In this document: positions 1 to 14,506 of the stretch, piece by piece | Position numbering within the stretch: the stretch's first letter is position 1 | Layout: each line of letters starts with the position of its first letter | The notes under the pieces: generated by a model | Databases searched by the model: none | Seen by the model: only the letters and a program-made list of their open reading frames with translations | What the model was told of the DNA's origin: nothing | Source: a virus | Lineage: Duplodnaviria > Heunggongvirae > Uroviricota > Caudoviricetes | Virus record (IMG/VR): IMGVR_UViG_2554235189_000015 | Location: 1-14,506 of that record | DNA: 14,506 nucleotides | Strand: one strand, 5' to 3' | Position numbers and translations under genes: made by a program

Positions 1-75
1 CTGGGTCATATCCCTCCGGCAGAAGCAGAAAAAGCTTATTATGCTTCCATCAGAAACGATGATCTGGCAGCCTGA
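1..75 (+). CDS. 3-prime end of an upstream gene (partial; by synteny probably the portal protein)
   Basis: The frame beginning at position 1 reads LGHIPPAEAEKAYYASIRNDDLAA and stops at TGA 73-75, using common enterobacterial codons. The other two frames are rich in rare codons (ata, cgg, agg). Portal precedes scaffold in P22-like phages. The protein identity is inferred from position only. Confidence 0.35.
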   Translation: MGHIPPAEAEKAYYASIRNDDLAA

Positions 76-158
76 GTTCACAGATAAAACACTCTCCAGG
101 AAAACCGGGGCGGTTCACACAGCCTGAGAATGAAAGCCAGGATGACAACGGTAAAGAG

Positions 159-914
159 GTGGCAACTGAGCCTGAAAAAACCGAAGAGACACCAGAAGAT
201 TACGCCTTGCGTATTGGTGATGAAGAAATTCAGCTTAACGCTGACGATGATGATCACATTGACGGGAAACCTGCACCGCAATGGGTGAAAGATCTTCGCA
301 AAGGCTTCAAAGAAACACAGAAAGAAAACCGTGAGTTGCGCCGCCAGCTTGAGGAAGCATTAGCCAAGCCTGCGGAACATCAGCAACCACAACCAGACGC
401 TATTCCACCAAAACCGACTCTTGAGTCGTGTGATTATGACGAACAGGCGTTTGAACAGGCATTGACTGATTGGCATGAGAAAAAAGGCCGTGTCGAACAG
501 CAGCAGCAACAAAAACTACGTCAGCAACAGGAATACCAACAGCGTTTCCAGCAAAGGGTAGAAGCGCATAAACAACGGGCAGCCAAACTTCCTGTGAAAG
601 ATTATCAGGAAATGGAGGCCATTGTTCTTAGTGAGCTACCACCAATTCAGCAGGAAATCATCATTCACTGTGCAGACGAAGGCTCTGAACTACTCGCCTA
701 TGGCTTAGGTAAGAGCCAGCAATTACGCCAGCGTGTAGCCGCTGAGACAGATCCAATTCGCGCAGCATTCCTCTTGGGGCAGATTAGCAAACAGGTAAGC
801 CTTGCTCCAAAACCAAAGAAAGCCATCAAGCCAGAGCCGGAAGTACGTGGTGGCGGTGCTGATGCGAAACAAGACGAATTCAACAAATTATGCCCCGGCG
901 CAAAAATCGAATAA
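159..914 (+). CDS. Scaffolding protein (P22 gp8-like)
   Basis: 251-aa ORF with an acidic N-terminus and a C-terminal segment (LPVKDYQEMEAIVLSELPP...LLAYGLGKSQQLRQ...LAPKPKK) that resembles the recalled coat-binding C-terminal region of P22 scaffold. Lies directly upstream of the coat gene. The start is uncertain: GTG at 159 is the only canonical start in a frame that is open back to position 63. Confidence 0.8.
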   Translation: MATEPEKTEETPEDYALRIGDEEIQLNADDDDHIDGKPAPQWVKDLRKGFKETQKENRELRRQLEEALAKPAEHQQPQPDAIPPKPTLESCDYDEQAFEQALTDWHEKKGRVEQQQQQKLRQQQEYQQRFQQRVEAHKQRAAKLPVKDYQEMEAIVLSELPPIQQEIIIHCADEGSELLAYGLGKSQQLRQRVAAETDPIRAAFLLGQISKQVSLAPKPKKAIKPEPEVRGGGADAKQDEFNKLCPGAKIE

Positions 915-925
915 GGAAAAGATAA

Positions 926-2197
926 ATGCCTAACAATCTCGACAGTAACGTCAGTCAAATCGTTCTGAAAAAATTCCTTCCTGGTTTTATGTCAGATTTA
1001 GTTCTGGCGAAAACCGTAGACCGTCAGTTGCTGGCAGGTGAAATCAACTCCAGCACTGGCGATAGCGTTAGCTTTAAACGTCCGCATCAATTCTCATCCC
1101 TCCGTACTCCCACTGGTGATATTTCGGGGCAAAATAAAAACAACCTGATCTCAGGTAAAGCTACGGGGCGTGTAGGTAACTACATCACTGTTGCTGTTGA
1201 ATATCAGCAACTGGAGGAAGCGATCAAGCTTAACCAACTGGAAGAAATTCTCGCGCCGGTTCGCCAGCGAATCGTTACCGACCTTGAAACAGAGCTTGCT
1301 CACTTCATGATGAATAACGGTGCGTTGTCACTTGGTAGCCCCAATACTCCAATCACCAAATGGTCTGATGTTGCGCAGACGGCATCTTTCCTGAAAGACC
1401 TCGGCGTTAATGAAGGTGAAAACTATGCTGTAATGGATCCATGGTCTGCACAGCGACTTGCTGATGCGCAGACTGGTTTGCACGCTTCAGATCAATTGGT
1501 TCGTACTGCATGGGAGAATGCGCAGATTCCAACCAATTTTGGCGGCATTCGCGCACTGATGTCTAATGGGCTTGCCTCTCGTACGCAGGGGGCATTTGGC
1601 GGAACACTGACAGTCAAAACACAGCCAACTGTTACCTATAACGCAGTTAAAGACTCATACCAGTTCACTGTAACATTGACCGGAGCGACAGCCAGCGTTA
1701 CAGGTTTTCTGAAAGCTGGTGATCAGGTTAAATTCACCAATACCTACTGGCTGCAACAGCAGACCAAACAGGCGTTGTATAACGGAGCCACACCAATTAG
1801 CTTCACTGCAACGGTTACTGCTGATGCTAATTCAGACAGCAGTGGCGATGTGACGGTTACGCTTTCTGGTGTTCCGATTTATGACACTACAAACCCGCAG
1901 TACAACTCTGTAAGTCGTCAGGTAGCGGCAGGCGATGCCGTATCTGTAGTAGGCACTGCTAGCCAGACAATGAAGCCAAACCTGTTCTATAACAAGTTCT
2001 TCTGTGGACTTGGCTCTATCCCACTGCCGAAACTGCACAGTATTGATTCTGCTGTTGCAACATATGAAGGTTTCTCCATCCGCGTACATAAATACGCAGA
2101 TGGCGATGCCAACGTGCAAAAAATGCGCTTTGACTTACTGCCTGCATATGTGTGCTTTAACCCTCACATGGGCGGTCAGTTCTTCGGTAATCCGTAA
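926..2197 (+). CDS. Major capsid (coat) protein, Sf6-type length (423 aa)
   Basis: ATG at 926 preceded by AAGGAAAAG (913-921). 423-aa ORF directly after scaffold and followed by a hairpin terminator. The N-terminus does not match the recalled P22 gp5 sequence, so this is called Sf6-like on position and size only. Confidence 0.85.
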   Translation: MPNNLDSNVSQIVLKKFLPGFMSDLVLAKTVDRQLLAGEINSSTGDSVSFKRPHQFSSLRTPTGDISGQNKNNLISGKATGRVGNYITVAVEYQQLEEAIKLNQLEEILAPVRQRIVTDLETELAHFMMNNGALSLGSPNTPITKWSDVAQTASFLKDLGVNEGENYAVMDPWSAQRLADAQTGLHASDQLVRTAWENAQIPTNFGGIRALMSNGLASRTQGAFGGTLTVKTQPTVTYNAVKDSYQFTVTLTGATASVTGFLKAGDQVKFTNTYWLQQQTKQALYNGATPISFTATVTADANSDSSGDVTVTLSGVPIYDTTNPQYNSVSRQVAAGDAVSVVGTASQTMKPNLFYNKFFCGLGSIPLPKLHSIDSAVATYEGFSIRVHKYADGDANVQKMRFDLLPAYVCFNPHMGGQFFGNP

Positions 2198-2201
2198 TAA
2201 C

Positions 2202-2228
2202 AAGGGGCTTCCGCCCCTTTTATGTTTT
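2202..2228 (+). terminator. Rho-independent terminator/attenuator downstream of the coat gene
   Basis: Perfect 7-bp stem AAGGGGC (2202-2208) / GCCCCTT (2213-2219) with loop TTCC, followed by the T-rich tract TTATGTTTT, immediately after the coat stop codon. Confidence 0.7.
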
Positions 2229-2239
2229 AAGGAAACAAT

Positions 2240-2425
2240 ATGGATCGCATGAGTGTATTCCTTGCCGCAGATAACGAATCCGGACATGTACAGGCCGTTA
2301 TCGCAGAAAAAGACTTCCAGTTTTTCGAAAAGTTGGGCTTTGTTGCCTCAGTTGATGAATTGAAACCGACCAGTAAGCGAGGTCGTAAGGCGGCAGACAA
2401 TGGCAACAGTACTGACAAAGGGTGA
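2240..2425 (+). CDS. Small hypothetical protein between coat and gp4-like genes
   Basis: 61-aa ORF with ATG at 2240 preceded by AAGGAAACAAT. Its 3-prime end overlaps the next gene start by 26 nt. Function unknown. Confidence 0.5.
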   Translation: MDRMSVFLAADNESGHVQAVIAEKDFQFFEKLGFVASVDELKPTSKRGRKAADNGNSTDKG

Positions 2426-2882
2426 GATCGTCCTTTTTGCGCTTCGTAAGTTTGCTATTGCTTCTAATGCATCGCTGACTGATGTTGAGCCGCAATCAAT
2501 TGAAGATGGTGTAAATGATCTGGAAGATATGATGTCCGAGTGGATGATTAACCCCGGCGACATTGGTTACGCTTTCGCAACTGGAGATGAGCAGCCATTA
2601 CCAGATGATGAGTCTGGTCTTCCAAGAAAATACAAACACGCAGTAGGCTATCAGTTATTGCTGAGAATGCTATCTGATTACAGCCTTGAACCAACTCCGC
2701 AAGTTCTCAGTAACGCCCAACGCTCATTTGATGCCTTGATGACCGACACTCTGGTTGTTCCTTCAATGCGACGACGTGGAGATTTTCCTGTAGGACAGGG
2801 TAATAAATATGACGTGTTCACATCTGACCGATATTATCCAGGCGATCTCCCTCTGATTGATGGCGATATCCCAAACGCATAG
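2400..2882 (+). CDS. Head completion / tail adaptor protein (P22 gp4-like)
   Basis: The N-terminus ([28 protein letters not shown]) matches the recalled P22 gp4 N-terminus ([28 protein letters not shown]). 160 aa versus about 166 aa in P22. AAGG lies 9 nt upstream of the ATG. Confidence 0.9.
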   Translation: [160 protein letters not shown]

Positions 2883-2890
2883 GTGAATAA

Positions 2891-4309
2891 ATGCCTATTC
2901 AGCAACTTCCGCTTATGAAAGGTGTCGGCAAAGACTTTAGAAACGCCGACTATATCGACTATCTGCCAGTGAATATGTTGGCTACACCCAAAGAAATCCT
3001 TAACAGCAGCGGATATCTTCGCTCATTCCCTGGCATTGCCAAACGTTCTGATGTGAACGGTGCATCTCGCGGCGTCGAGTACAACATGGCGCAGAATGCT
3101 GTTTATCGCGTATGTGGTGGCAAGCTGTACAAAGGAGAAAGCGAGGTCGGTGATGTTGCCGGAAGTGGTCGCGTATCAATGGCGCATGGTCGAACATCTC
3201 AGGCGGTAGGCGTTAATGGTCAACTGGTAGAGTATCGCTATGATGGCACGGTTAAAACCGTCTCAAACTGGCCTGCAGACAGCGGATTCACTCAGTATGA
3301 GTTAGGTTCGGTTCGTGACATTACGCGCTTGCGCGGGCGTTATGCGTGGTCAAAAGACGGCACTGATTCATGGTTTATCACTGACCTTGGAGACGAATCA
3401 CATCCTGACCGTTACAGCGCACAATATCGTGCCGAGTCTCAGCCTGACGGCATCATCGGCATAGGAACATGGCGAGACTTCATCGTCTGCTTTGGTTCAT
3501 CGACGATTGAATATTTCTCCCTGACAGGTGCAACCACCGTTGGTGCCGCGTTGTATGTCGCACAGCCATCACTGATGGTGCAGAAAGGGATTGCCGGAAC
3601 CTACTGCAAAACGCCGTTTGCTGATTCGTATGCGTTCATCAGCAATCCGGCAACAGGTGCGCCGTCTGTATATATCATCGGCTCCGGTCAGGTATCACCA
3701 ATCGCCAGCGCGAGCATTGAGAAAATACTACGCTCCTACACTGCTGATGAACTGGCTGATGGCGTAATGGAATCGTTGCGCTTTGATGCGCATGAGTTGC
3801 TGATTATCCATCTTCCGCGCCACGTCCTCGTGTACGACGCATCTTCAAGCGCCAATGGTCCGCAATGGTGTGTGTTGAAAACTGGCTTGTATGACGATGT
3901 GTACCGCGCTATCGACTTCATTTACGAAGGCAATCAGATAACGTGCGGCGATAAGCTGGATTCCGTGACCGGGAAATTGCAATTCGACATCAGCAGCCAG
4001 TACGACAAGCAACAGGAACACCTGCTGTTTACTCCGTTGTTCAAAGCGGATAACGCCAGAGTTTTCGACCTTGAAGTTGAATCTTCAACTGGAGTTGCGC
4101 AGTATGCTGACCGCCTTTTTCTCTCTGCAACCACTGACGGCATCAATTACGGACGTGAGCAGATGATTGAGCAGAATGAACCGTTCGTTTACGACAAACG
4201 CGTTTTGTGGAAGCGAGTAGGGCGCATCAGGAAAAATGTCGGCTTCAAATTGCGCGTTATCACGAAGTCACCTGTCACTCTGTCTGGTTGCCAGATAAGG
4301 ATTGAGTAA
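2891..4309 (+). CDS. Tail hub protein (P22 gp10-like)
   Basis: 472 aa, the same length as P22 gp10, with near-identity to the recalled gp10 N-terminus ([46 protein letters not shown]). AGGTGA SD upstream of ATG 2891. Confidence 0.95.
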
Positions 4310-5157
4310 TGGCGGATTCGAATCTCAATGTGCCGGTAATCATTCAGGCTACACGGCTCGACACATCAGTCCTTCCACGCAATATCTTCTCGCAGTCGTA
4401 TCTGCTTTACGTTATCGCACAGGGTACTGATGTTGGTAACGTGGCGAACAAGGCCAACGAGGCCGGACAGGGCGCTTATGACGCACAAGTCAGGAACGAT
4501 GAGCAGGATGTGATTCTGGTCGATCACGAAATTCGACTGGCATCAGCTGAAGCGAAGATTCAGGACCACGAAACAAGGATCACTAACGCAGAATCGGCGA
4601 TAGTCGGCCTTGATTCCCGATTAACGACAGCAGAAAACGATATTGATTATCTGACTGATGAAGTTATCGCCATTCAAAACACGCTTTCAGACCATGAAAC
4701 GCGCATTGATGCTCTGGAGTATGCCACTACTCGCAAAAAGTCAGAGGTTGTTTACTCTGGCGTATCTGTAACCATCCCGACAGCGCCGACCAACCTTGTT
4801 AGCCTGCTGAAAACGCTCACGCCGTCATCCGGGACGTTGGCACCATTCTTCGACACTGTTAACAACAAGATGGTTGTGTTCAACGAGAACAAAACCTTGT
4901 TCTTCAAGCTGTCGATCGTCGGGACGTGGCCCAGCGGAACCGCCAACAGGTCAATGCAGCTAACCTTTTCCGGCTCTGTTCCTGACACGTTGGTCAGCAG
5001 TCGTAATGCGGCGACAACAACCGACAACATCCTGTTAGCTACGTTCTTCAGCGTGGATAAAGACGGCTTTCTTGCCACAAATGGCAGTACGTTAACCATT
5101 CAGTCAAATGGTGCGGCGTTTACTGCCACAACCATCAAGATAATCGCGGAGCAGTAA
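4309..5157 (+). CDS. Tail needle protein (P22 gp26-like N-terminus with a C-terminal knob extension, Sf6-type)
   Basis: The N-terminus ([43 protein letters not shown]...[13 protein letters not shown]) matches the recalled gp26 N-terminus. At 282 aa it is longer than P22 gp26 (about 233 aa), with a beta-rich C-terminal domain. The start overlaps the gp10 stop (TAATG). Confidence 0.9.
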
Positions 5158-5612
5158 TGATTCAGTTCAAACCAACGCGAAACATCGACCTGATCGAAGC
5201 CGTGGGAAATCACCCCGACATTATCGCCGGGAGCAACAACGGTGATGGATACGACTACAAGCCTGAATGCCGTTACTTCGAGGTGAACGTGCACGGGCAG
5301 TTCGGCGGCATTGTTTACTATCAGGAGATTCAGCCTTTGACCTTTGATTGCCACGCCATGTACCTGCCAGAGGTTCGTGGATTCAGCAAGGAAATCGGGC
5401 TGGCGTTCTGGCGATACATTCTGACTAACACCACCGTTCAGTGCGTCACATCGTTCGCTGCGCGCAAATTCCGCCACGGTCAGATGTACTGCGCAATGAT
5501 TGGCCTTAAGCGAGTAGGAACCATCAAGAAATACTTCAAAGGCGTGGATGACGTGACTTTTTACAGCGCAACACGCGAAGAACTAATCGACTTCCTGAAT
5601 CACGGGAGATAG
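5157..5612 (+). CDS. P22 gp14-like virion protein
   Basis: 151-aa ORF in the syntenic position between the tail needle and the ejection proteins. Start overlaps the previous stop (TAATG). Assigned by position and size only. Confidence 0.7.
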   Translation: MIQFKPTRNIDLIEAVGNHPDIIAGSNNGDGYDYKPECRYFEVNVHGQFGGIVYYQEIQPLTFDCHAMYLPEVRGFSKEIGLAFWRYILTNTTVQCVTSFAARKFRHGQMYCAMIGLKRVGTIKKYFKGVDDVTFYSATREELIDFLNHGR

Positions 5613-5614
5613 CC

Positions 5615-6307
5615 ATGTTATATGCATTTAAGCTGGGCAGAAAACTGCGCGGCGAGGAACCTTATTGCCCTGAAAAGGGTGGGAAAGGTGGCAGTTCTGA
5701 TAAAAGCGCAAAGTATGCCGCAGAAGCTCAGAAGTATGCAGCAGACCTGCAAAATCAGCAGTGGCAGACGATCATGAAAAACCTTGCTCCGTTCACGCCT
5801 CTTGCGGAGCAGTATGTTAACCAGTTGCAGAATCTTTCCAGTTTAGAAGGTCAGGGGCAGGCACTTAATCAGTATTACAACTCTCAGCAGTATAAAGACC
5901 TTGCAGGTCAGGCGCGTTACCAGAGTCTTGCTGCTGCGGAGGCGACGGGTGGACTTGGTTCGACAGCCACAAGCAATCAACTGGCTACGATCGCGCCGAC
6001 ACTCGGTCAGTCTTGGTTATCAAACCAGATGAGCAATTACAACAATCTGGCAAACGTTGGGCTTGGTGCGCTGCAAGGTCAGGCAAACGCCGGGCAGACG
6101 TACGCCAACAACATGAGCAGCATTGCACAGCAAAGCGCAGCACTTGCCGCTGCTAATGCCAATAAACCATCAAGTCTTCAGACTGCAATTAGCGGTGGCA
6201 CGTCTGGTGCGATTGCCGGTGCAGGTCTTGCCAGCCTTTTGGGAACATCAACGCCTTGGGGCGCTGGCATTGGTGCTGGTATCGGATTGCTTGGCTCGTT
6301 GTTTTAA
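5615..6307 (+). CDS. Ejection (internal virion) protein, P22 gp7-like
   Basis: 230 aa (P22 gp7 is about 229 aa). N-terminus MLYAFKLGRKLRGEE, with a Gly/Ala-rich hydrophobic C-terminus. GGGAGA SD 5 nt upstream of the ATG. Confidence 0.8.
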   Translation: MLYAFKLGRKLRGEEPYCPEKGGKGGSSDKSAKYAAEAQKYAADLQNQQWQTIMKNLAPFTPLAEQYVNQLQNLSSLEGQGQALNQYYNSQQYKDLAGQARYQSLAAAEATGGLGSTATSNQLATIAPTLGQSWLSNQMSNYNNLANVGLGALQGQANAGQTYANNMSSIAQQSAALAAANANKPSSLQTAISGGTSGAIAGAGLASLLGTSTPWGAGIGAGIGLLGSLF

Positions 6308-6316
6308 GGGGTAATC

Positions 6317-7783
6317 ATGGCTACTTGGCAAGGAACAAACGGCGGATTGTTGGCTGGTATCGGCGTCGTCAACTCAAACGCTCCGAGCGTAAATGACATC
6401 GGCAATACGCTTCAGCTTATCAGGCAGAACAATGATATTGAGCGTTCAGGCGCTAACAATGTTGGGCTGACTGCTTTGCAAGGTCTTTCAGGTATTGCGG
6501 GTGTTTTTCAGCAGGAAAAGCAGGCTCAGCGGCAGAAAGAATTTCAGCAGGCATACGCTAATGCTTATGCGTCTGGTGATCGCGGTGCTTTGCGTCAGTT
6601 GGCTACTCAATATCCAGACCAGATTGAATCCGTTCGTAAAGGCATGGGATTCATTGATGAAGACCAGCGCAATTCTATAGGCACCTTAGCGGCTGGCGCA
6701 CGCCTTGCGTCATCGTCTCCAGAAGCAATGCAATCATGGCTGCAAAACAACGCCAAGGAACTGACTCGCGTCGGTGTTGACCCTAACAGCGTTGCTCAGA
6801 TGTATCAGCAGAATCCTTCAGGATTTGGTGAGTTTGTTGATCACCTTGGGATGGCTGCGCTTGGTCCGATTGATTACTTCAATGTTCAGGACAAGATGGC
6901 TGGTCGGGATATTGAGCGTGGCGAGTTGGCAGAGACGATTCGCAGCAATCATGCTGGAGAAGCACTTCAGGCGAGAGGGCAGGATATTAGCCGAGCAAAT
7001 GCGTTAACGTCAGCATATGCACCAACAGCCGCAATGCAGAATTACAATCAGTACGCGCAAATGTTAAAGGCAGATCCAGATGGTGCAGCGGCATTTGCGG
7101 CAGCGGCGGGAATTAATCCCAATGCTAAGAAATTACTTAAGGTTGAAACCAATCCTGATGGCTCGGTAACTAAGTATTACACCGATGGCAGCGAGGAAGC
7201 CGGAAAACTAAACCAACCTATATCTGGTGATGGCATTAAACCAATTAGCTTGCCACAAGCGCAAAGCATCATAGATAAGGCTAATGAGGGTTCCAAGAAG
7301 GCGGCAGGATTTGCTTTGCGATTAAAAGATTCAATGGACTCAATGAATCAGCTTAGTAAAAGCATTGACCCTAAGCGAGTTGCATTAATAAATCGCTCTC
7401 TTGGTGATGGGACTATTGCAAATTTAAGCCTATCACCAGCGGAGCAGCAATACATGGTAAATGCGAGAGACGCCTTGTATGCAATTTTGCGCCCAGAAAC
7501 AGGTGCAGCAATTACTCTGCCAGAGATGCAGGAGTATTCCAAAATGTACCTGCCTCAGCCTGGTGATTCCAAGGCTGCTACTGAAACAAAAATGCGAAAA
7601 ATGCAGGGCCAATATAACTCATTACGTGGTCAGTCTGGTCGCGTTTATGATGCTTTGGTGGTTTCAAGTGCTGCAAATAGTCAACAACAGAGCAATAGCC
7701 AACAACCGACAAATACCCAACAGCAGCAGAGTCAATCCGGATCATATACCTCAAAATCAGGCATTCAATTTACGGTGGAATGA
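6317..7783 (+). CDS. Ejection protein, P22 gp20-like
   Basis: 488 aa in the syntenic position (P22 gp20 is about 471 aa). AAGGGG SD upstream. Q/S-rich low-complexity C-terminus. Confidence 0.75.
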
Positions 7784-9627
7784 TGAAAGTAACTGCAAAC
7801 GGTAAGACATTTACCTTTCCTGATGGTACGAGCACCGAAGATATTGGCACCGCCATTGATGAGTATTTTGCTGGTCAGGCTGTTCAGCAACAAACAGTTA
7901 ATCAGGCCAATAATGCACCAACACGGGAAGAACCATCATTGATGCAACAAGCTGGTGATTGGCTCACTGGTGGTCAAAGTGCAGGGAAAATTGCGGAACA
8001 GGCTGGTCGTGGTCTGGTAAACATACCATTTGACGTATTGCAGGGCGGCGCAAGTCTGATTAATGCAATCAGTCAGGGGCTTGGTGGACCCAAGGTTTTG
8101 GATGATGTTTATCGTCCAGTAGACAGACCGACAGACCCCTACGCGCAAGCCGGTGAAACAATTGGTGGGTATTTAGTTCCAGGAGTTGGAACGGCAGGAA
8201 GCATGGCTATTGGATCACTGGCAGAGGCCGCAAATCAGAAAGGCGATTTCGCACAAAATGCAGCTAAAAATGCCGGAGTTAACCTTGCCGCTCAGGGTGT
8301 TCTTTCCGCAGCAGCAAAGGGAATAGGGCGTGGAATAACGGCTATAAAAGGTGATATTGCGCCAGAAGTGGCGAAGAAAATTGCCACATCAGAATCGATG
8401 GGCGTGACACCAATGACATCTGATGTTATCCCGCCGAAAAATGCTTTTACTCGCGGCCTAACTCAGGATGCCGAGGGGGCTTTGCTCGGGACAGGCTCAA
8501 AGCGAGCGGAGCAATATGCAACGCGTAGTAAGCTGGTAAGTAATTATTTTGACCGTTTTGGTGAGTACAACCCTGATGATGTGGTGAAATCTCTTACCAC
8601 CACGTTAAGGGGGCGGAAGGATGCCGCTGGCGCTGTTATCAATGACGTCACCAATAAAATGGGTAATGCCGCAGTTGATACCACAAATACCATGAATGCT
8701 CTGAATACAGCGATCGCAAGACAGGAACGGCTTGGGACGTCTGCCAATCAAAGCCTGCTTACATCCTTGCGTAACCTACGTGAAGAATTAGCAAACCCTG
8801 CAACTGATTTGGATGTTACGTTTGATCTCTTGCGTCAGCACAGAACAGCATTTAGATCTAATGTTCAGGGAGATGCTATGGTCTTCCCCAACCAGGCAAA
8901 AGCAGCTACCAATATGGTAGAGAATGCAATGTCAAAAGACCTTCGTAACGCAGTTGCTAAAAACCTCGGTGCATCAGACGCAGCAAAATACCTTAAAGCA
9001 AATTCCGATTATGCAAACGTTTATAATAAGGTGCTTAATAAAAACATTGCCAACAAGCTCAACAAGGCAAGCAGTGAAGCCAGTCCTGAACTTATAAATA
9101 CCGTTGTATTAAGCAGAAAACCATCTGACGTGAAACGAATCTGGAGCGCACTGGATGATAAGGGGAAAGATGCTATGCGTGCAGCTTACGTCAGCAAAAT
9201 AGCGGAAAAGGCCGGGGACTCTCCAGCCAAGTTCATCACTGAAGTTAATAAGCTGAAATCTCAGTCAGGCGGTGAAATTTACAACACTATTTTTTCTGGA
9301 AAGCACATGAAAGAGCTTGATGCTCTTCATGAAGTTCTACAGCAAACAGCAAGGTCAGACACCGCAAATGTAGTAACTCAGACGGGGCAATCGCAAGCCA
9401 ACAGGATAAGGACGATTGGCGCAACTGCGACCCTTGGCGTATCAATGGGGCTTGAGGCTGGTTTTGGTGCAATGATGCGCTTGTATGAGTCCAAAGCAGC
9501 AAGGAATGCTCTCTTACGCCTGGCAAACACTAAAACTGGAACGCCAGCTTATGAAAGAGCGCTAAATAATGCTGCAAATGCGATACGCCCTATACTTTCA
9601 AGCCAAATTACAGCAGAACAGCAATAA
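7780..9627 (+). CDS. Ejection protein, P22 gp16-like
   Basis: 615 aa in the syntenic position (P22 gp16 is about 609 aa). Start overlaps the gp20-like stop (ATGATGA), consistent with translational coupling. Confidence 0.75.
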
Positions 9628-9641
9628 AAGATAAGATATAA

Positions 9642-10127
9642 CTACCTGATATTACTGCTACTGTTGCATGTTACCGTGTTTCCAAATCCTGAATTGCAGT
9701 TTGTATATGTGTCAACGCGTGTTGGGTAAGGTTGAGTTATAACAGGCTGGCGCGCTTTTTGCTCGATCGCTTGCATTGTGTTTACAGCCTGATAATTCAA
9801 TAAAGCCTGCTGGAATGCTTGGCTTTGCGCTATTTGTTGGGCTTGCTCTTGGCTTTGTAATTGAACATAAAGATTTTGAAGCTCAAGTCTTGCCTGTGCG
9901 TCACTTATCTTACCTTCATCAACACCTTGCCCGAGCATCTTTGCGGCAAGGACATACAGCTTAGGTGTTGGTGCAGACGCCATGCGTGAGTCGTTCTTCA
10001 CACTGGCATCAAGGCAATTAGCCATATCGCTAAGCTTTTGATAGCGTTGTTCGCAACTTGCTTGATAGTCACTTACTTTTGCGCATCCAACCAGAAGAAG
10101 CGGGATAATTAACAGTGATTTTTTCAT
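9642..10127 (-). CDS. Phage-encoded lipoprotein of unknown function (candidate superinfection-exclusion factor)
   Basis: Start assigned to the internal Met at 10127: MKKSLLIIPLLLVGC is a classic signal peptide with lipobox LVGC, and a strong SD (AAGGAGAG) lies about 8 nt upstream. The track start at 10163 has no SD. The mature protein is Gln-rich with four further cysteines. Occupies the position of sieA in P22 (between gene 16 and mnt, opposite strand to the late genes). Confidence 0.75.
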   Translation of the reverse strand: MKKSLLIIPLLLVGCAKVSDYQASCEQRYQKLSDMANCLDASVKNDSRMASAPTPKLYVLAAKMLGQGVDEGKISDAQARLELQNLYVQLQSQEQAQQIAQSQAFQQALLNYQAVNTMQAIEQKARQPVITQPYPTRVDTYTNCNSGFGNTVTCNSSSNIR

Positions 10128-10197
10128 ATGGCTAACTCTCCTTAGTTTTTCACAGGATATCATGAAGGAAATGCCATTTTAGCCGGAAACTAGATTT

Positions 10198-10464
10198 CTA
10201 TGTTTCCTTTTTATTATTGCTATACATGGTCTTAAGCGTTTCAAAAACCATTTTCTTAACCATATCAGATTGTTGTTCTGCCATACGCTCTGCATCGTCA
10301 ATGTAAACGGATGCAGAGCTTTGTTTAGCCAATGATTCTTCAATCGCTGCAATTATCTCTGAGTTCAGCGACCTGTTATTCATCTTCGCACGCTGCTTAA
10401 TTTTCGCGTGGAGTTCATGCGGAAGTCTCAAGTGAAACTGCGCCTCGTCGTATTTGCTGTACAT
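10198..10464 (-). CDS. mnt: Mnt-like ribbon-helix-helix repressor
   Basis: Clear similarity to the recalled P22 Mnt sequence: FHLRLPHELHAKIKQRAKMNNRSLNSEI versus FNFRMPMEVREKLKFRAEANGRSMNSEL, and DDAERMAEQQSDMVKKMVFETLKTMY versus NDAERLADEQSELVKKMVFDTLKDLY. Start placed at the internal Met (10464, 88 aa, GGTGAGG about 9 nt upstream), which aligns with the Mnt N-terminus. The alternative start at 10497 would give 99 aa. Confidence 0.85.
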   Translation of the reverse strand: MYSKYDEAQFHLRLPHELHAKIKQRAKMNNRSLNSEIIAAIEESLAKQSSASVYIDDAERMAEQQSDMVKKMVFETLKTMYSNNKKET

Positions 10465-10585
10465 CCTTGATGCCTCACCAGTTGGGTGGAATGGCATCGT
10501 AACCTACTGGATAAATACTCAATAGTACCATTTCTGTATGCAATCACATCATGGTTGCATCATATCATTCGTCTGGAGCAATGAA
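10465..10585. promoter_or_regulatory. Divergent intergenic region between mnt-like gene and tailspike; candidate promoter/operator region
   Basis: About 120 bp of non-coding DNA between divergent genes. Contains the inverted repeat ATGCAA-N11-TTGCAT (10538-10560), a CACC-N5-GGTG element (10476-10488) and a GGAG SD (10575-10578) for the tailspike. No confident -35/-10 pair could be assigned by eye. Confidence 0.3.
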
Positions 10586-12652
10586 ATGTCAGATATCACC
10601 GCAAATGTTGTGGTAAGCATGCCTTCGCAACTCTTCACTATGGCGCGTTCTTTTAAAGCGGTTGCCAATGGCAAAATTTATATCGGTAAAATTGACACTG
10701 ATCCGGTAAATCCTGAAAACCAGATTCAGGTTTATGTGGAAAACGAAGACGGTTCTCACATTCCTGTTTCGCAACCAATCATCATTAACGCTGCTGGTTA
10801 CCCGGTATATAACGGGCAGATTGCCAAGTTCGTAACTGTGCAAGGCCATTCTATGGCTGTATATGATGCGTATGGTGCGCAGCAGTTCTATTTTCCTAAT
10901 GTGCTGAAGTATGACCCTGACCAACTAAGACAGGAGTTAGATGGTGTTGGTGGGGTTAATTTAGTAAATGGGGCATTACATGGTGCCATGGATTCAGATC
11001 CAAATGTTGGTTTTAAAATCACCACATCCTCAGGTGAGATTTACGAATATGCTCCGGGAATTACAGGTCTTGCCGATGGGTTTTCGGTATCAGCATCACA
11101 GTTATATTTAACAAGGAATGGCCTATCTTATAAATACTCTTCACCTCATAACACACTGGTTTGGCCATCTCAGTATATCGATACGAGTGCTGATGCGAAA
11201 TATTCAATTGAATCTATTATGGCGCACGGATTGAATGTGGACCTTAACGGAACTACAGTTAAAGCCAGCACCATTAATATTACGAAAGATTTGATTAATG
11301 GTGAAATTGTTGCTATCGGAGATGAAGGATCATTTATAACAGTAAACTCATGCATGCTTAACAATATTAAAGTTAACTGCAATATGATGGCAATTAGAAG
11401 GCCTGTTCATATCAAAACAGGGGCTGTTAATCCAGTAGTTAAGAATGTTGATGTTTTTGATAGTAATGGTTCTCAACTAACTTATGGTATTTTCATAGAT
11501 GCAAATTCTGTATTGAATTTTGTCGTTGATAACATATCAATACATAATATTACCACCATTGGAAATGGTATTCAGGGTGATGTAATTGGGCCATGTCGAG
11601 GGATTCTTGTAGGAACGGCACTTGATCCAGTACCATCAAATGATGATGAGGTATCAAGTGGAGTTATAAGTAACGTAAGGATTTACAAGCTAAACCCTTG
11701 GGAAGATGCTGATGGTGTTGTTATTCAGATTTACAACTCATCATCAAATATGCTCAGCGGGAAGAAAATAAAGGTTGATGGCGTTTATACTTACAATGCA
11801 CTTAAGCGAGCAGTCAAAGTTCAGGCCAATGATGTTACAGTAACAAATGTATTTGCGGTTTGTGATGACGCCTCAGCAACTAACCCTATGTATAGTTGTG
11901 TTAGTGTTTATGGTAGTTCCTGTGTTGTTCGTGGTGTTAGTGGGCGAGGAAGGATTGGCAATGGTGTTGATTCATCTGATGGGTTCAATACTATCAGTGA
12001 TGTTTATCTTAAGACGACAGCAACCTATGAGCTAAGCGCAGGTCTACAGATAACTTCCGGGCAGGTAAACGCGAATAACATTCACTCTGAAGGATCAAGA
12101 TACATAGTCGCAATTCGGGCAGTTAATAACACAACACCGTATGTAAATATTAATGGCATATATGGGCAAGGTTATGACGGGGCGATTTTGTTAGAAATCA
12201 GATACGGATTTAATATTGGTAATGTTTACTTAAGTGATATTTCAGTATCAAGTTCAAATCCCACAAGGTCTTCATTCTTCTTTGATATATTATCAGGTGG
12301 AAGTATATCTCTGATCAGCGTGTCAGACGTCAAGAGAATCAGTCAGGCATTTAACGGAGCAGATATAAACATTTCTGGTGGGGTTGCAAAAGCTATTGTT
12401 AAAAATTCAGTTTTTGAGAGTGGTTCGTCAAGCGTTGGTGTATCAATGACAACTGGTACTTTAGTTGCATCAAATATATCAGCACAAAGTAAATCTTATG
12501 CTGTCAACGCTGTACAAACCACAAATTCACTTATAAATAACATTGATGGAATCGTTAGGGTTGATAGCACAACCAACAGTAATGTCGGCCTTTACAGAGG
12601 GATTACCTCTGTTGGGACTAACACAGGACTGAAAACTGTTTTCTATCAATAA
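10586..12652 (+). CDS. Tailspike protein: P22-type head-binding N-terminal domain plus divergent receptor-binding/depolymerase domain (predicted beta-helix)
   Basis: The N-terminus from Met 10586 ([57 protein letters not shown]...[13 protein letters not shown]...NVLKYDPDQ) matches the recalled P22 gp9 head-binding domain. GGAG lies 7 nt upstream. The remaining roughly 570 aa are AT-rich and rich in Asn/Ser/Val/Ile/Gly, as in parallel beta-helix depolymerases. The track start at 10538 adds 16 non-homologous residues and was not used. Confidence 0.9.
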
Positions 12653-13204
12653 TTATATATAACCTTTTGATGTTTTATATGATGTTATCTTGGCAGGGAC
12701 GCCAGCAATAGTGCAATTTCCATCTTTAAAATCTTTGTTAACGACTGCATTCGCGCCTATTGCACAATTGTCACCTATAACTATCTTTCCGTAAATTTTT
12801 GCTCCAGGACCAATGTAGCAATTATCACCAATTACAGGGGATTCAAGTCCTGCTCCAGCTGATGTGCCAATATTCGTACCTACATGAATTCGGCAATTTG
12901 CACCTATCCTGGCTCCTGCGTTAACAACTATGTTACCATAATGTGGTATTGATAACCCTGGACCAAAGGTATTGATAGGTATTGAAAATCCAAGTTTCAT
13001 TTGAATTTTGCGTAACCTAAGTCTTGTAATCAGAATTAAAACTTTATTTCCTTTGCAATTAGTAAGATACTCCAACCTCCTTAGCAATCTAAGGAATCTC
13101 CATATATCGTTGAATATTATATTTTTTAACCTTGACCCCTGAAGCCTCATAGCCTTTTCGTCAAGGAGAAGGTATGACTTGTAATCTTCCTTGCTGCTTA
13201 TCAT
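12653..13204 (-). CDS. Hexapeptide-repeat (left-handed beta-helix) acetyltransferase, CysE/WcaB/NeuO-like; candidate lysogenic-conversion enzyme
   Basis: The C-terminal half has tandem hexapeptide motifs typical of LbH acyltransferases (NAGARIGANCRIHVGTNIGTSAGAGLESPVIGDNCYIGPGAKIYGKIVIGDNCAIGANAVVN). Strongly AT-rich. Lies between the tailspike and int/att, where P22 has gtrABC and Sf6 has oac. Start is uncertain: Met at 13204 is preferred (184 aa, weak SD); the track start at 13258 adds an odd hydrophobic leader. Confidence 0.8.
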   Translation of the reverse strand: MISSKEDYKSYLLLDEKAMRLQGSRLKNIIFNDIWRFLRLLRRLEYLTNCKGNKVLILITRLRLRKIQMKLGFSIPINTFGPGLSIPHYGNIVVNAGARIGANCRIHVGTNIGTSAGAGLESPVIGDNCYIGPGAKIYGKIVIGDNCAIGANAVVNKDFKDGNCTIAGVPAKITSYKTSKGYI

Positions 13205-13348
13205 TCTATGCTCGCCAGAAATGTGAATAGGTGTAAAGATTAAGAAAAACCTCAACATTTTGCAAGATTAAGGTTAATCATAGTAAATGACAGTTGATCT
13301 GAATGCGCCTTAAGACTACTGTGTATGCATGCAGTGATGTAGGTGGCA
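13205..13348. promoter_or_regulatory. Spacer between acetyltransferase and int 3-prime end: candidate attP region / acetyltransferase promoter
   Basis: In P22-like genomes attP lies between the conversion locus and the 3-prime end of int. This AT-rich spacer contains a 9-bp direct repeat AAGATTAAG (13236-13244 and 13264-13272) and a related TTAAGA at 13310-13315. No tRNA-like core could be recognised by eye. Confidence 0.25.
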
Positions 13349-14506
13349 CTACCCCTCCTTTTCATCAAGCCAATCCGCCCACCACTGCATCATTTCTCTG
13401 CGCTTATCGAGATACTGAGCATGGTTGTAAATTCCACGCACAGAACCGCCGTTGGCATGTGCCAGTTGCACTTCAATGGCGTCGGCAGGCCATTCGTGCT
13501 CGTTCATAATTGTGCTGAATTCATGCCTGAATCCGTGACCGCTTTCCAGACCCTCATAGCCGATTTGTTTGATCACAAGCAATACCGCGTTCTCGCAGAT
13601 TGGCTTCTTCTTATCGTTGCGCCCGGCAAAAACAAACTCTGATACTGGTTTGGTGATTGAGCTTAGCGTAGTGAGAAGTTCAACCACCTGGTCTGACATA
13701 GGAACCACATGAATTTTGCGTCCCTTCATCACACTGGCGTCGATGGTGATAATCCTGTTTTCAAAATCGACGTTCTTCCATAGCATGGAACGAAGCTCTT
13801 TCGTTCTTAGGGCTGTGTAGCGTAAAATTTTAGTAGCAATGAGCGATACGATACTTCCTGAAAATGTTGCAAGTGCTTTGTTGAATGCCGGGATCTGGTC
13901 GGCAGGTAAAAATGGGAAGTTCTTCTTGCGGTATCCCTTCATGGCGTCAGCAAGGTCAGGTGCCGGGTTATATTTAGCCCTACCAGTGACAATAGCGTAA
14001 CGGAAAACCTCGCCGCATCTTCTGCGGGCTTTGTTGGCTCGCTCCATTGCACCGCGATCTTCAAATCTGCGGATTACTTCCAGCAGTTGCATCGGCTCAA
14101 TATCCTGAATCTCAAGGCCGCCGATGATGGGTAAAATGTCGTCATCAAACATTTTGGCAAGTTCAGTTGCATAGCCTACTGACCAGACTTGCTTCTTGTG
14201 CTCGTACCATTCCTTGTAAATCGCACTAAATGAATTGTTGTTAGACGAAGCCTTTTTCGCTTTTACCGGATCGATGCCAACCGAGATGTCTTTCCTCGCA
14301 GTCCATGCTTTATCCCTTGCCTCCTGCAAAGTCATAAGTGGATATTTTCCGACGGTCAGGATTTTCTCCTTACCGTCAATCTTGTAGCGAAGCTGCCATA
14401 CCTTTTTCCCGGATACAGGGACATAAAGGTACAGGCCATTACCATCGAGAAGGCGGTATGGTTTTTCTTTCGGCTTTGCTGCTTCAATCTGCTTAACGGT
14501 GAGCAT
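13349..14506 (-). CDS. int: Tyrosine integrase (P4/P22 family), apparently full length
   Basis: 385-aa ORF. The N-terminus (MLTVKQIEAAKPKEKPYRLLDGNGLYLYVPVSGKKVWQLRYKIDGKEKILTVGKYP) is the typical arm-binding domain of P4-type integrases. The C-terminus carries the catalytic region (HGFRHEF ... LAHANGGSVRGIYNHAQY). The ATG is the reverse complement of the last three bases of the window. Confidence 0.92.
   Translation of the reverse strand: MLTVKQIEAAKPKEKPYRLLDGNGLYLYVPVSGKKVWQLRYKIDGKEKILTVGKYPLMTLQEARDKAWTARKDISVGIDPVKAKKASSNNNSFSAIYKEWYEHKKQVWSVGYATELAKMFDDDILPIIGGLEIQDIEPMQLLEVIRRFEDRGAMERANKARRRCGEVFRYAIVTGRAKYNPAPDLADAMKGYRKKNFPFLPADQIPAFNKALATFSGSIVSLIATKILRYTALRTKELRSMLWKNVDFENRIITIDASVMKGRKIHVVPMSDQVVELLTTLSSITKPVSEFVFAGRNDKKKPICENAVLLVIKQIGYEGLESGHGFRHEFSTIMNEHEWPADAIEVQLAHANGGSVRGIYNHAQYLDKRREMMQWWADWLDEKEG

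Follow-up and report, generated by a model that had tools for sequence, protein, structure and literature searches.

The 14,506-nucleotide window analyzed here, positions 1 to 14,506 of IMG/VR record IMGVR_UViG_2554235189_000015 (Caudoviricetes), carries a short reverse-strand gene for a predicted acetyltransferase between the tailspike gene and the integrase gene (int) of a P22-like prophage. We consider it probable that this gene encodes a lysogenic-conversion enzyme that O-acetylates the O76 O-antigen unit of Escherichia coli in the cytoplasm and so masks the receptor that this phage's tailspike recognizes. The proposal is least secure as to which glycan is modified and in which direction the modification acts.

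The whole window is the right arm of a prophage resembling P22, Sf6, and HK620, in which the late and ejection genes are followed by the tailspike gene (10538 or 10586 to 12652, +), the short reverse-strand gene, and an IntS-type integrase gene. The acetyltransferase gene is transcribed in the same direction as int and opposite to the late genes; the latter orientation had been stated in a preliminary description of the window. The layout recurs in three complete E. coli genomes (KD602, JNE132847, and K99B), in which intS is annotated and adjoins the tRNA-Arg gene argW and yfdC. The int gene of the window is 97% identical to that of Sf6. The features on which the argument draws are as follows.

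10586 to 10933 (+): N-terminal P22-type head-binding domain of the tailspike (Pfam PF09008, E = 1.1e-66), part of the phage backbone and not of the cassette described below.
10934 to 12652 (+): receptor-binding domain (RBD) of the tailspike, 572 amino acids (aa), predicted right-handed beta-helix, the cassette partner of the acetyltransferase.
12650 to 12655 (no strand): stop-to-stop junction TAA/TTA (TAATTA) of the tailspike and acetyltransferase genes, with zero intergenic bases.
12653 to 13204 (-): acetyltransferase coding sequence, 183 aa, starting MISSKEDYK and identical to WP_000625801.1.
13205 to 13258 (-): 18-codon 5' extension of the longest open reading frame (ORF), set apart by the homologue starts, the end of homology, and the lack of a Shine-Dalgarno-like motif.
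13237 to 13265 (-): promoter-like element TTGCAA-17 nt-TAATCT, 61 nt upstream of the 13204 ATG.
13349 to 14506 (-): IntS-type integrase at the prophage end beside argW, 96 to 98% identical to the int of Sf6, HK620, and CUS-3.

The longest ORF runs on the reverse strand from an ATG at 13258 to 12653 (201 aa), and the preliminary description had taken all of it as the gene. The ORF is real and contains hexapeptide repeats, but its true start is almost certainly the ATG at 13204. We moved the start because the NCBI annotation places it at the equivalent position in all three annotated genomes, the homologues begin there with MI(S/T/D/N/Q)xx (62 of 62 aligned), the DNA stops matching another phage backbone (L004) at 13205, and the 13258 ATG lies between the two hexamers of a promoter-like element that four backbones have in common. 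The start at 13258 was rejected on the last three of these grounds. A Shine-Dalgarno-like GGCGAG lies 6 nt ahead of the 13204 ATG; inspection of the sequence upstream of the 13258 ATG revealed nothing purine-rich or Shine-Dalgarno-like. Positions 13205 to 13258 are probably not translated and would constitute the 5' untranslated region and part of the promoter.

A TTGCAA-17-TAnnnT arrangement recurs 56 to 94 nt upstream of the ATG in the four backbones, which include L004, L095, and L106, and the surrounding upstream DNA is divergent. The conservation of this element suggests that it may be the acetyltransferase's own promoter. A generic promoter and terminator scan gave no enrichment and missed the element, whose -10 hexamer matches just three of six consensus positions. 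The junction at the other end of the gene is identical in L106 and near-identical in L004, and the two genes also abut in L095 and in L096 to L105. There is no terminator between the convergent tailspike and acetyltransferase genes. When positions 12500 to 13450 were examined for phase-variable repeats with TRF, just one 1.9-copy 10-mer was returned.

As far as sequence and predicted structure can tell, the encoded protein is most likely a soluble, cytoplasmic, acetyl coenzyme A (acetyl-CoA)-dependent sugar O-acetyltransferase from the CysE/WcaB-like branch of the left-handed beta-helix (LbH) superfamily. It matches the Pfam family PF00132 (Hexapep; E = 1.8e-12, 46.8 bits against a cutoff of 27). 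An AlphaFold2 (AF2) monomer model built from 63 sequences (pLDDT 95, pTM 0.88) predicts four N-terminal helices (residues 5 to 71) followed by a left-handed beta-helix. When the PDB was searched with Foldseek, all of the best 50 matches listed were serine acetyltransferases of the LbH type (TMq 0.73 to 0.76, 22 to 28% identity, probability 1.00), and a PDB sequence search likewise placed CysE-type serine acetyltransferases closest. Residue H88 is invariant in the 63 sequences and aligns with H158 of CysE and with the HH motif of WcaB. The maximum 19-residue Kyte-Doolittle hydropathy is 1.14, with no transmembrane segment, and a Pfam search of the protein found no AT3 domain (PF01757, Acyl_transf_3); the protein is therefore predicted to be soluble. 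Both the soluble LbH fold and the active-site histidine had been anticipated in the preliminary description, and both are borne out by these analyses.

Related proteins of approximately 185 aa form a widespread family that has no name; the best 120 of 5431 matches (E <= 0.001) are 55 to 96% identical to the window protein. PHROG 2154 ("unknown function") matches over the full length (E = 1.7e-45; residues 13 to 178 against profile positions 17 to 183 of 185). No close phage relative of the acetyltransferase was found in the phage database, where the best match was 36%, in S. thermophilus phages. Comparison by BLASTP with NeuO, WcaF, WbbJ, and the acyltransferase of the O76 cluster found nothing past the hexapeptide repeats, and close homology to any of them was rejected. 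WcaB aligns over 143 residues at 26% identity. The best NCBIfam match is EpsC (NF041874; E = 3.3e-22, 79 bits against a cutoff of 150), and the scores for NeuD (47.2 against 160.8), WbbJ (41 against 243), and WcaB (38.3 against 194.65) are likewise below cutoff. EpsC and the colanic acid enzyme WcaB resemble the window enzyme in length (160 to 190 aa), in branch, and in having genes or relatives in polysaccharide clusters. The window enzyme scores under both equivalog cutoffs, so it is an orthologue of neither, and it differs from both in being phage-borne and coupled to a receptor-binding protein.

The genomic surroundings of relatives are those of polysaccharide synthesis. In 36 species-representative genomes, we collected the two nearest genes to either side of the homologue and scanned the resulting 133 proteins against Pfam. 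The neighbor families included glycosyltransferase families GT1 (27) and GT2 (10), Wzy_C (12), UDP-GlcNAc 2-epimerase (5), AT3 (4), and Polysacc_synt_3 (2); a glycosyltransferase or Wzy accounted for approximately 37% of the neighbors. No cysteine-synthesis family was among the 25 commonest neighbor families. The closest homologue in the scan of species-representative genomes was 61% identical. A 72% homologue in Providencia stands at the end of a polysaccharide cluster, after ugd, GT4, epimerase, wzx, and AT3-SGNH genes, and adjoins trmL, yefM-yoeB, cysE, gpsA, and secB. The trmL-cysE-gpsA-secB neighborhood is what we take to be the known site of the Providencia O-antigen locus, and the cluster is probably an O-antigen cluster. 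The Providencia protein is 90% identical to the copy in a Proteus prophage, an indication that genes have moved between phages and O-antigen clusters.

The preliminary description had tied the enzyme to the adjacent tailspike and had remarked on the low GC content of its gene. The second remark is correct in that the longest ORF has a GC content of 0.370, against 0.480 in positions 1 to 10500 and 0.476 in int, but the property is not peculiar to the gene: the RBD (0.380) and the intergenic stretch upstream of the acetyltransferase (0.375) are likewise low, and the three together stand at 0.37 to 0.38 against 0.48 elsewhere. The link to the tailspike is strengthened by loci in which homologues of the RBD occur, listed here with their identity to the window.

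L004, prophage with a T7-tail-type spike N-terminus: RBD 89%; LbH acetyltransferase 86%, abutting stop to stop.
L106, Enterobacter hormaechei prophage with a third N-terminus: RBD 84%; LbH acetyltransferase 94.5%, junction identical.
L107, Proteus prophage: RBD 64%; LbH acetyltransferase 75%.
L108 (4001 to 7977), contig with GpJ-like tail genes upstream: RBD 61%; convergent AT3-SGNH (OafA-like) acetyltransferase.
L109 (140 to 4570), L107-like backbone with a lysis cassette: RBD 58%; convergent AT3-SGNH acetyltransferase, split into 438 aa and 55 aa.
L110, large multi-spike contig: RBD 50%; no acetyltransferase.
L111, contig with DNA polymerase A and SNF2 genes: RBD 45%; no acetyltransferase.
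Gloob, Ackermannviridae phage: RBD 50%; no acetyltransferase.

In the L004 and L106 pairs, identity to the window is 86 to 95% for the acetyltransferase and 84 to 89% for the RBD, and the pair as a whole occurs in at least four phage backbones. At ten further loci encoding the exact E. coli protein, the same RBD was adjacent in every case (10 of 10). These ten represent three integration sites (argW, the torT side, and dacD) and have differing ejection-protein and immI modules. In two of them, L097 and L102, the acetyltransferase is still at the prophage end despite the other integration site. The comparison indicates that the RBD and the acetyltransferase are co-inherited as one low-GC cassette across phage backbones. 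Among the RBD homologues, pairing with an acetyltransferase goes with prophage-like contexts and not with three contexts without lysogeny genes. The enzyme class is replaceable, an LbH enzyme giving way to a non-homologous AT3-SGNH enzyme, with the pairing kept.

A more ambitious reading, to which we give a little less than an even chance, is that the two parts form an approximately 2.3-kb self-contained "recognise-and-mask" cassette. It would have its own promoter and a conserved junction, hop among unrelated temperate backbones (P22-like, T7-tail-N, and two more; in Escherichia, Citrobacter, Enterobacter, and Proteus), be under selection as a pair, and define a phage-determined O-acetyl subtype of O76. 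Because selection would act on the pair, the masking enzyme could be swapped for an AT3-SGNH enzyme with the pairing retained.

Several arrangements at other loci were also observed. In L097 and L102, the prophage end with the tailspike and acetyltransferase genes is located at two other chromosomal sites, one by a periplasmic-binding-protein gene beside a two-component response-regulator gene, a pair that we take to be torT/torR-like, and one by dacD; neither locus has an adjacent integrase, and homology to the window stops at 13433 and 13409, inside the 3' end of int. In a Proteus prophage contig (L092, 25 to 3049), the gene for an acetyltransferase 75% identical to that of the window converges on the gene for a 787-aa tailspike with domains of the G7C gp63.1 type (Tail_spike_N, Gp63_3rd_G7C, and G7C_GBD) and a GDS(L) esterase-like motif, so that an acetyl-adding enzyme is paired with a putatively acetyl-removing spike. 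The L092-type acetyltransferase is also found beside the beta-helix RBD in L107 and beside an AT3 gene in L093. A scan of IMG/VR for relatives yielded 11 loci. In five of seven contigs examined (L115, L116, L119, L120, and L121), relatives of 46 to 60% identity lie directly downstream of, and co-directional with, tail-fiber or tailspike genes; in one of the seven, the relative is instead between the terminase and portal genes.

The distribution of the gene among hosts points to the O76 O antigen. A sensitive blastn search found the gene in three of 5426 complete E. coli genomes, the same KD602, JNE132847, and K99B, and the O76 wzx/wzy cluster is present in all three, flanked by galF and gnd. 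The O76 wzy gene occurs in just five of the 5426 genomes; the hypergeometric probability that three carriers would all fall within the five by chance is 3.8e-10, for three strains whose independence is not assured. Among the complete E. coli genomes searched, the acetyltransferase is confined to O76 genomes. Thus, the proposed link between enzyme and adjacent tailspike gained on two sides, from co-inheritance with the RBD across backbones and from the confinement of the module to O76 hosts. The exact protein is also present in the complete genomes CP027484 and CP169402, both outside the annotated collection. The O76 O unit, as summarized in PMC10304059 (citing Perepelov 2013), is a linear tetrasaccharide of two GalNAc, one GalNAc3Ac (approximately 70% acetylated), and one GlcA. 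According to the same summary, the O76 serogroup includes HUSEC39, a strain of the haemolytic-uraemic-syndrome collection (PMC10304059).

We propose the following course of events. In the lysogen, a sigma-70-type promoter belonging to the gene would drive leftward transcription that does not depend on the late operon. The enzyme would then work on the cytoplasmic side of the membrane, ahead of flipping by Wzx, and acetylate a hydroxyl group either of the undecaprenyl-diphosphate-linked O76 unit, a tetrasaccharide of GalNAc and GlcA, or of a nucleotide sugar that serves as a precursor; its class suggests this site of action, because a soluble LbH enzyme reaches acetyl-CoA in the cytoplasm alone. 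Wzy and WaaL would build extra- or differently-acetylated O76 lipopolysaccharide, and the modified product would escape binding or cutting by the adjacent beta-helix RBD. The lysogen may thereby be shielded from superinfection and its progeny spared adsorption to lysogen debris.

The proposed role has counterparts at the same position in related phages. Related P22-like phages carry seroconversion genes in the slot between tailspike and int (PMC8787464). The window gene agrees with this slot in both position and orientation, which supports the interpretation offered in the preliminary description. Oac of Sf6, OacB of Sf101, and GtrABC of P22 resemble the window gene in their position (tailspike-[gene]-int-att), in the family of their backbone, and in their presumed role of modifying the receptor of their own tailspike. 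Oac and OacB are integral-membrane AT3 enzymes that act after export, whereas the window enzyme has neither an AT3 domain nor a hydrophobic segment and must therefore act in the cytoplasm on a lipid- or nucleotide-linked precursor, if its predicted class is correct.

Another functional parallel, drawn in the preliminary description, is NeuO of phage CUS-3 in E. coli K1. NeuO acetylates polysialic acid, the glycan recognized by the neighboring endosialidase tailspike. Like the window enzyme, it is a soluble hexapeptide-repeat acetyltransferase encoded between tailspike and int in an argW-integrated P22-like prophage. The parallel stands as one of function and not of descent. BLASTP aligned the two proteins at 32% identity over 50 aa (27 bits), covering generic hexapeptide repeat, and the structure of a polysialic acid O-acetyltransferase (PDB 2WLC) matches residues 123 to 175 of the window enzyme. 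NeuO belongs to a LacA/NodL-like branch, unlike the CysE/WcaB-like window enzyme. The neuO gene has a 5' tract of the heptanucleotide AAGACTC (19 copies in CUS-3), whereas the window gene has no such tract; neuO is co-directional with its tailspike gene, whereas the window gene is convergent; and the target of NeuO is a capsule, whereas that of the window enzyme is probably a Wzx/Wzy O antigen.

A number of observations weigh against the masking proposal. The O76 link comes from three complete genomes that are perhaps partly related, although their yfdF alleles and prophage mosaics do differ. One of the three, KD602, has an O8 mannan cluster in addition. The O76 cluster encodes an LbH acyltransferase of its own, unrelated to the phage enzyme, and the GalNAc3Ac that has been reported could be the work of that enzyme. 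The contribution of the phage enzyme would then be a further acetyl group or a change in the position of one, at a site that is not readable from the sequence. The best PHROG match of the tailspike is labeled "colanic acid degradation," which would fit a receptor other than the O76 glycan. The putative promoter is a poor match to consensus, as its -10 hexamer indicates. Finally, an N-terminally truncated, 144-aa form is present on 120 contigs, which implies that the gene is dispensable in some lineages. In KD602 (L088/L089; NZ_CM145715.1, 1836644 to 1861969), galF and gnd flank the complete O76 cluster, and the O8-type mannan cluster (wzm/wzt) is situated in the interval from wzzB to hisI.

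Some of these points would fit an enzyme that acetylates a surface glycan for a purpose other than masking. It might build an epitope that the tailspike needs, or it might modify another polymer (colanic acid, enterobacterial common antigen, or capsule) for serological or immune variation or for defense against other phages. The coupling of RBD and acetyltransferase is silent on the direction of the effect, and the Proteus homologue of 75% identity is found beside a G7C gp63.1-like spike with a GDS(L) esterase motif as well. Spikes of the G7C gp63.1 type act on O-acetyl groups. The colanic acid label of the tailspike and the two O-antigen clusters of KD602 are also in keeping with such a role. 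On the other hand, a lysogen has no obvious gain from creating the receptor of its own phage, and the cassette is restricted to O76 genomes, whereas every E. coli has the genes for colanic acid. To our knowledge, all known occupants of this slot in relatives (oac and gtr) mask the receptor, which also counts against this explanation. We therefore regard a non-masking role as unlikely, though it is the likeliest of the alternatives.

The tailspike itself does little to narrow down the glycan. Among solved structures, the spikes of Sf6, P22, and HK620 match it over residues 1 to 119 alone, counted from 10586. The AF2 model of the RBD (pLDDT 89) gave weak, generic beta-helix matches in Foldseek (the HK620 and CBA120 tailspikes and PL6 lyases; E approximately 1e-3, TM-score 0.2 to 0.38), among which hydrolase and lyase are indistinguishable. 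In the phage database, the sole match to the RBD above 26% identity was the 50% match in Shigella phage Gloob. The longest tailspike ORF begins at 10538, and the RefSeq coding sequence and the head-binding domain begin at 10586 (MSDITANV); the first 16 codons (10538 to 10585) are probably untranslated.

Alternatively, the gene might have no present function and be decaying or silent, traveling as a passenger of the tailspike. Two truncated forms, the 144-aa form and a 115-aa form on 11 contigs, speak for this idea, as does the weak match of the promoter to consensus. Both forms lack the helical domain, and they suggest inactivation in some E. coli lineages. However, the acetyltransferase is under strong purifying selection, with pN/pS of 0.095/0.637 in the comparison with L004 and 0.018/0.116 in that with L095, a ratio of approximately 0.15. 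The exact 183-aa protein is encoded on 520 contigs of the collection, and the gene is intact in two prophages broken by insertion sequences (IS), K99B (L003) and L098. The promoter-like element is kept in four backbones, and relatives have an analogous enzyme, of the AT3-SGNH type, in the slot. A passenger is improbable in the face of such retention. Intact 183-aa members also occur in Citrobacter amalonaticus and C. farmeri. In K99B, the ejection-protein gene is cut short by an IS100 that has fragments of BREX genes on its far side; the IS of L098 lies inside the head-binding region of the tailspike.

RefSeq, through PGAP, names the protein a serine O-acetyltransferase, which would make the gene an auxiliary metabolic gene boosting cysteine synthesis. 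In favor of this name, the closest solved folds and sequences are those of CysE (PDB 1T3D, 1SSQ, 6WYE, and 4HZC), the best structural match, which shares the helical N-terminal domain, the LbH, and the catalytic histidine, and the NCBIfam CysE model TIGR01172 matches with E = 3.6e-17. However, that match scores 62.9 bits against a cutoff of 210.65, and NF008349 scores 44.4 against 397. The window enzyme is 90 residues shorter than CysE, and no SATase_N domain (PF06426) was detected in it at E <= 0.1, whereas the genuine CysE in L005 has one. In CysE (E. coli numbering), Asp157, Arg192, and His193 bind serine and Asp143 partners the catalytic histidine, as published structures of serine acetyltransferases have established. 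In an alignment of 25 family members, D157 is replaced by P or A, R192 by S or A, and H193 is deleted; the position of D143 is S or T in 24 and Tyr in one. The neighbors of family members are glycosyltransferase and Wzy genes, not cysteine genes, and in Providencia a genuine 273-aa CysE, exactly matching a Providencia protein, is encoded approximately 1.2 kb from the 72% homologue. With the serine-binding residues and SATase_N absent and the scores far under the cutoffs, the name is doubtful, and we conclude that it is probably wrong. We rejected the serine acetyltransferase identity, which is very improbable on cutoffs, domain, residues, and context alike. The objection foreseen in the preliminary description, best matches to housekeeping acyltransferases and no link to polysaccharides, does not apply: EpsC and CysE are the nearest named families, but the residues for binding serine are lacking and relatives lie among polysaccharide genes.

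A xenobiotic or antibiotic acetyltransferase (Vat/CAT-B-like) or another non-glycan small-molecule enzyme is equally hard to credit: LbH enzymes include Vat and CatB, and weak NCBIfam matches to Vat and ApmA exist, but these score 19 to 23 bits against cutoffs of 300 to 550 and reflect generic hexapeptide turns alone, and the context of the family is polysaccharide synthesis, with the gene tightly tied to tailspikes.

Elsewhere in the window, two reverse-strand genes (9642 to 10497, -) lie between the gene for a gp16-like ejection protein and the tailspike gene. One encodes a 173-aa protein (PHROG 6067, unknown function) and the other an Arc/Mnt-family DNA-binding protein; this is an immI-like region that is variable among otherwise similar prophages.

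Masking of a receptor by a prophage is already known; the aspects of the present case that most deserve attention are the behavior of the cassette and the link to O76. Prophage acetyltransferases that track the surface-polysaccharide locus of the host, with lysogenic conversion proposed, are described for Klebsiella, where they follow capsule type (PMC13123978), and Atr29, Atr30, and Atr44 of Acinetobacter prophages likewise track such a locus (PMC6586298, PMC13228068). As described there, these cases concern other hosts and glycans than the window system, and the length given for Atr29, approximately 348 aa, suggests an enzyme family different from that of the window enzyme. The available text of these papers makes no mention of a cassette of RBD and acetyltransferase shared between backbones. 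In the related phage Kapi1, the gene behind O-antigen modification is still unknown (PMC8787464). A literature search on the accession of the acetyltransferase found no paper citing it.

If the masking proposal is true, a cytoplasmic, CysE-like LbH enzyme would be a third enzyme class in the seroconversion slot of P22-like phages, beside glucosylation by Gtr and the AT3 enzyme Oac. It would also correct a misleading RefSeq name seen in three annotated genomes for a protein found, in identical form, on hundreds of contigs. The proposal predicts a hidden O-acetyl subtype of E. coli O76, which bears on serotyping, phage susceptibility, and glycoconjugate design. If the self-contained cassette is real as well, the O76 Wzx/Wzy machinery would have to tolerate a subtype made by a cytoplasmic enzyme. 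A cassette with non-homologous replacement of its enzyme would be a natural system for studying the co-evolution of receptor recognition and masking, and it offers a rule for the annotation of host range: a tailspike gene with a convergent acetyltransferase gene suggests an acetyl-sensitive glycan receptor.

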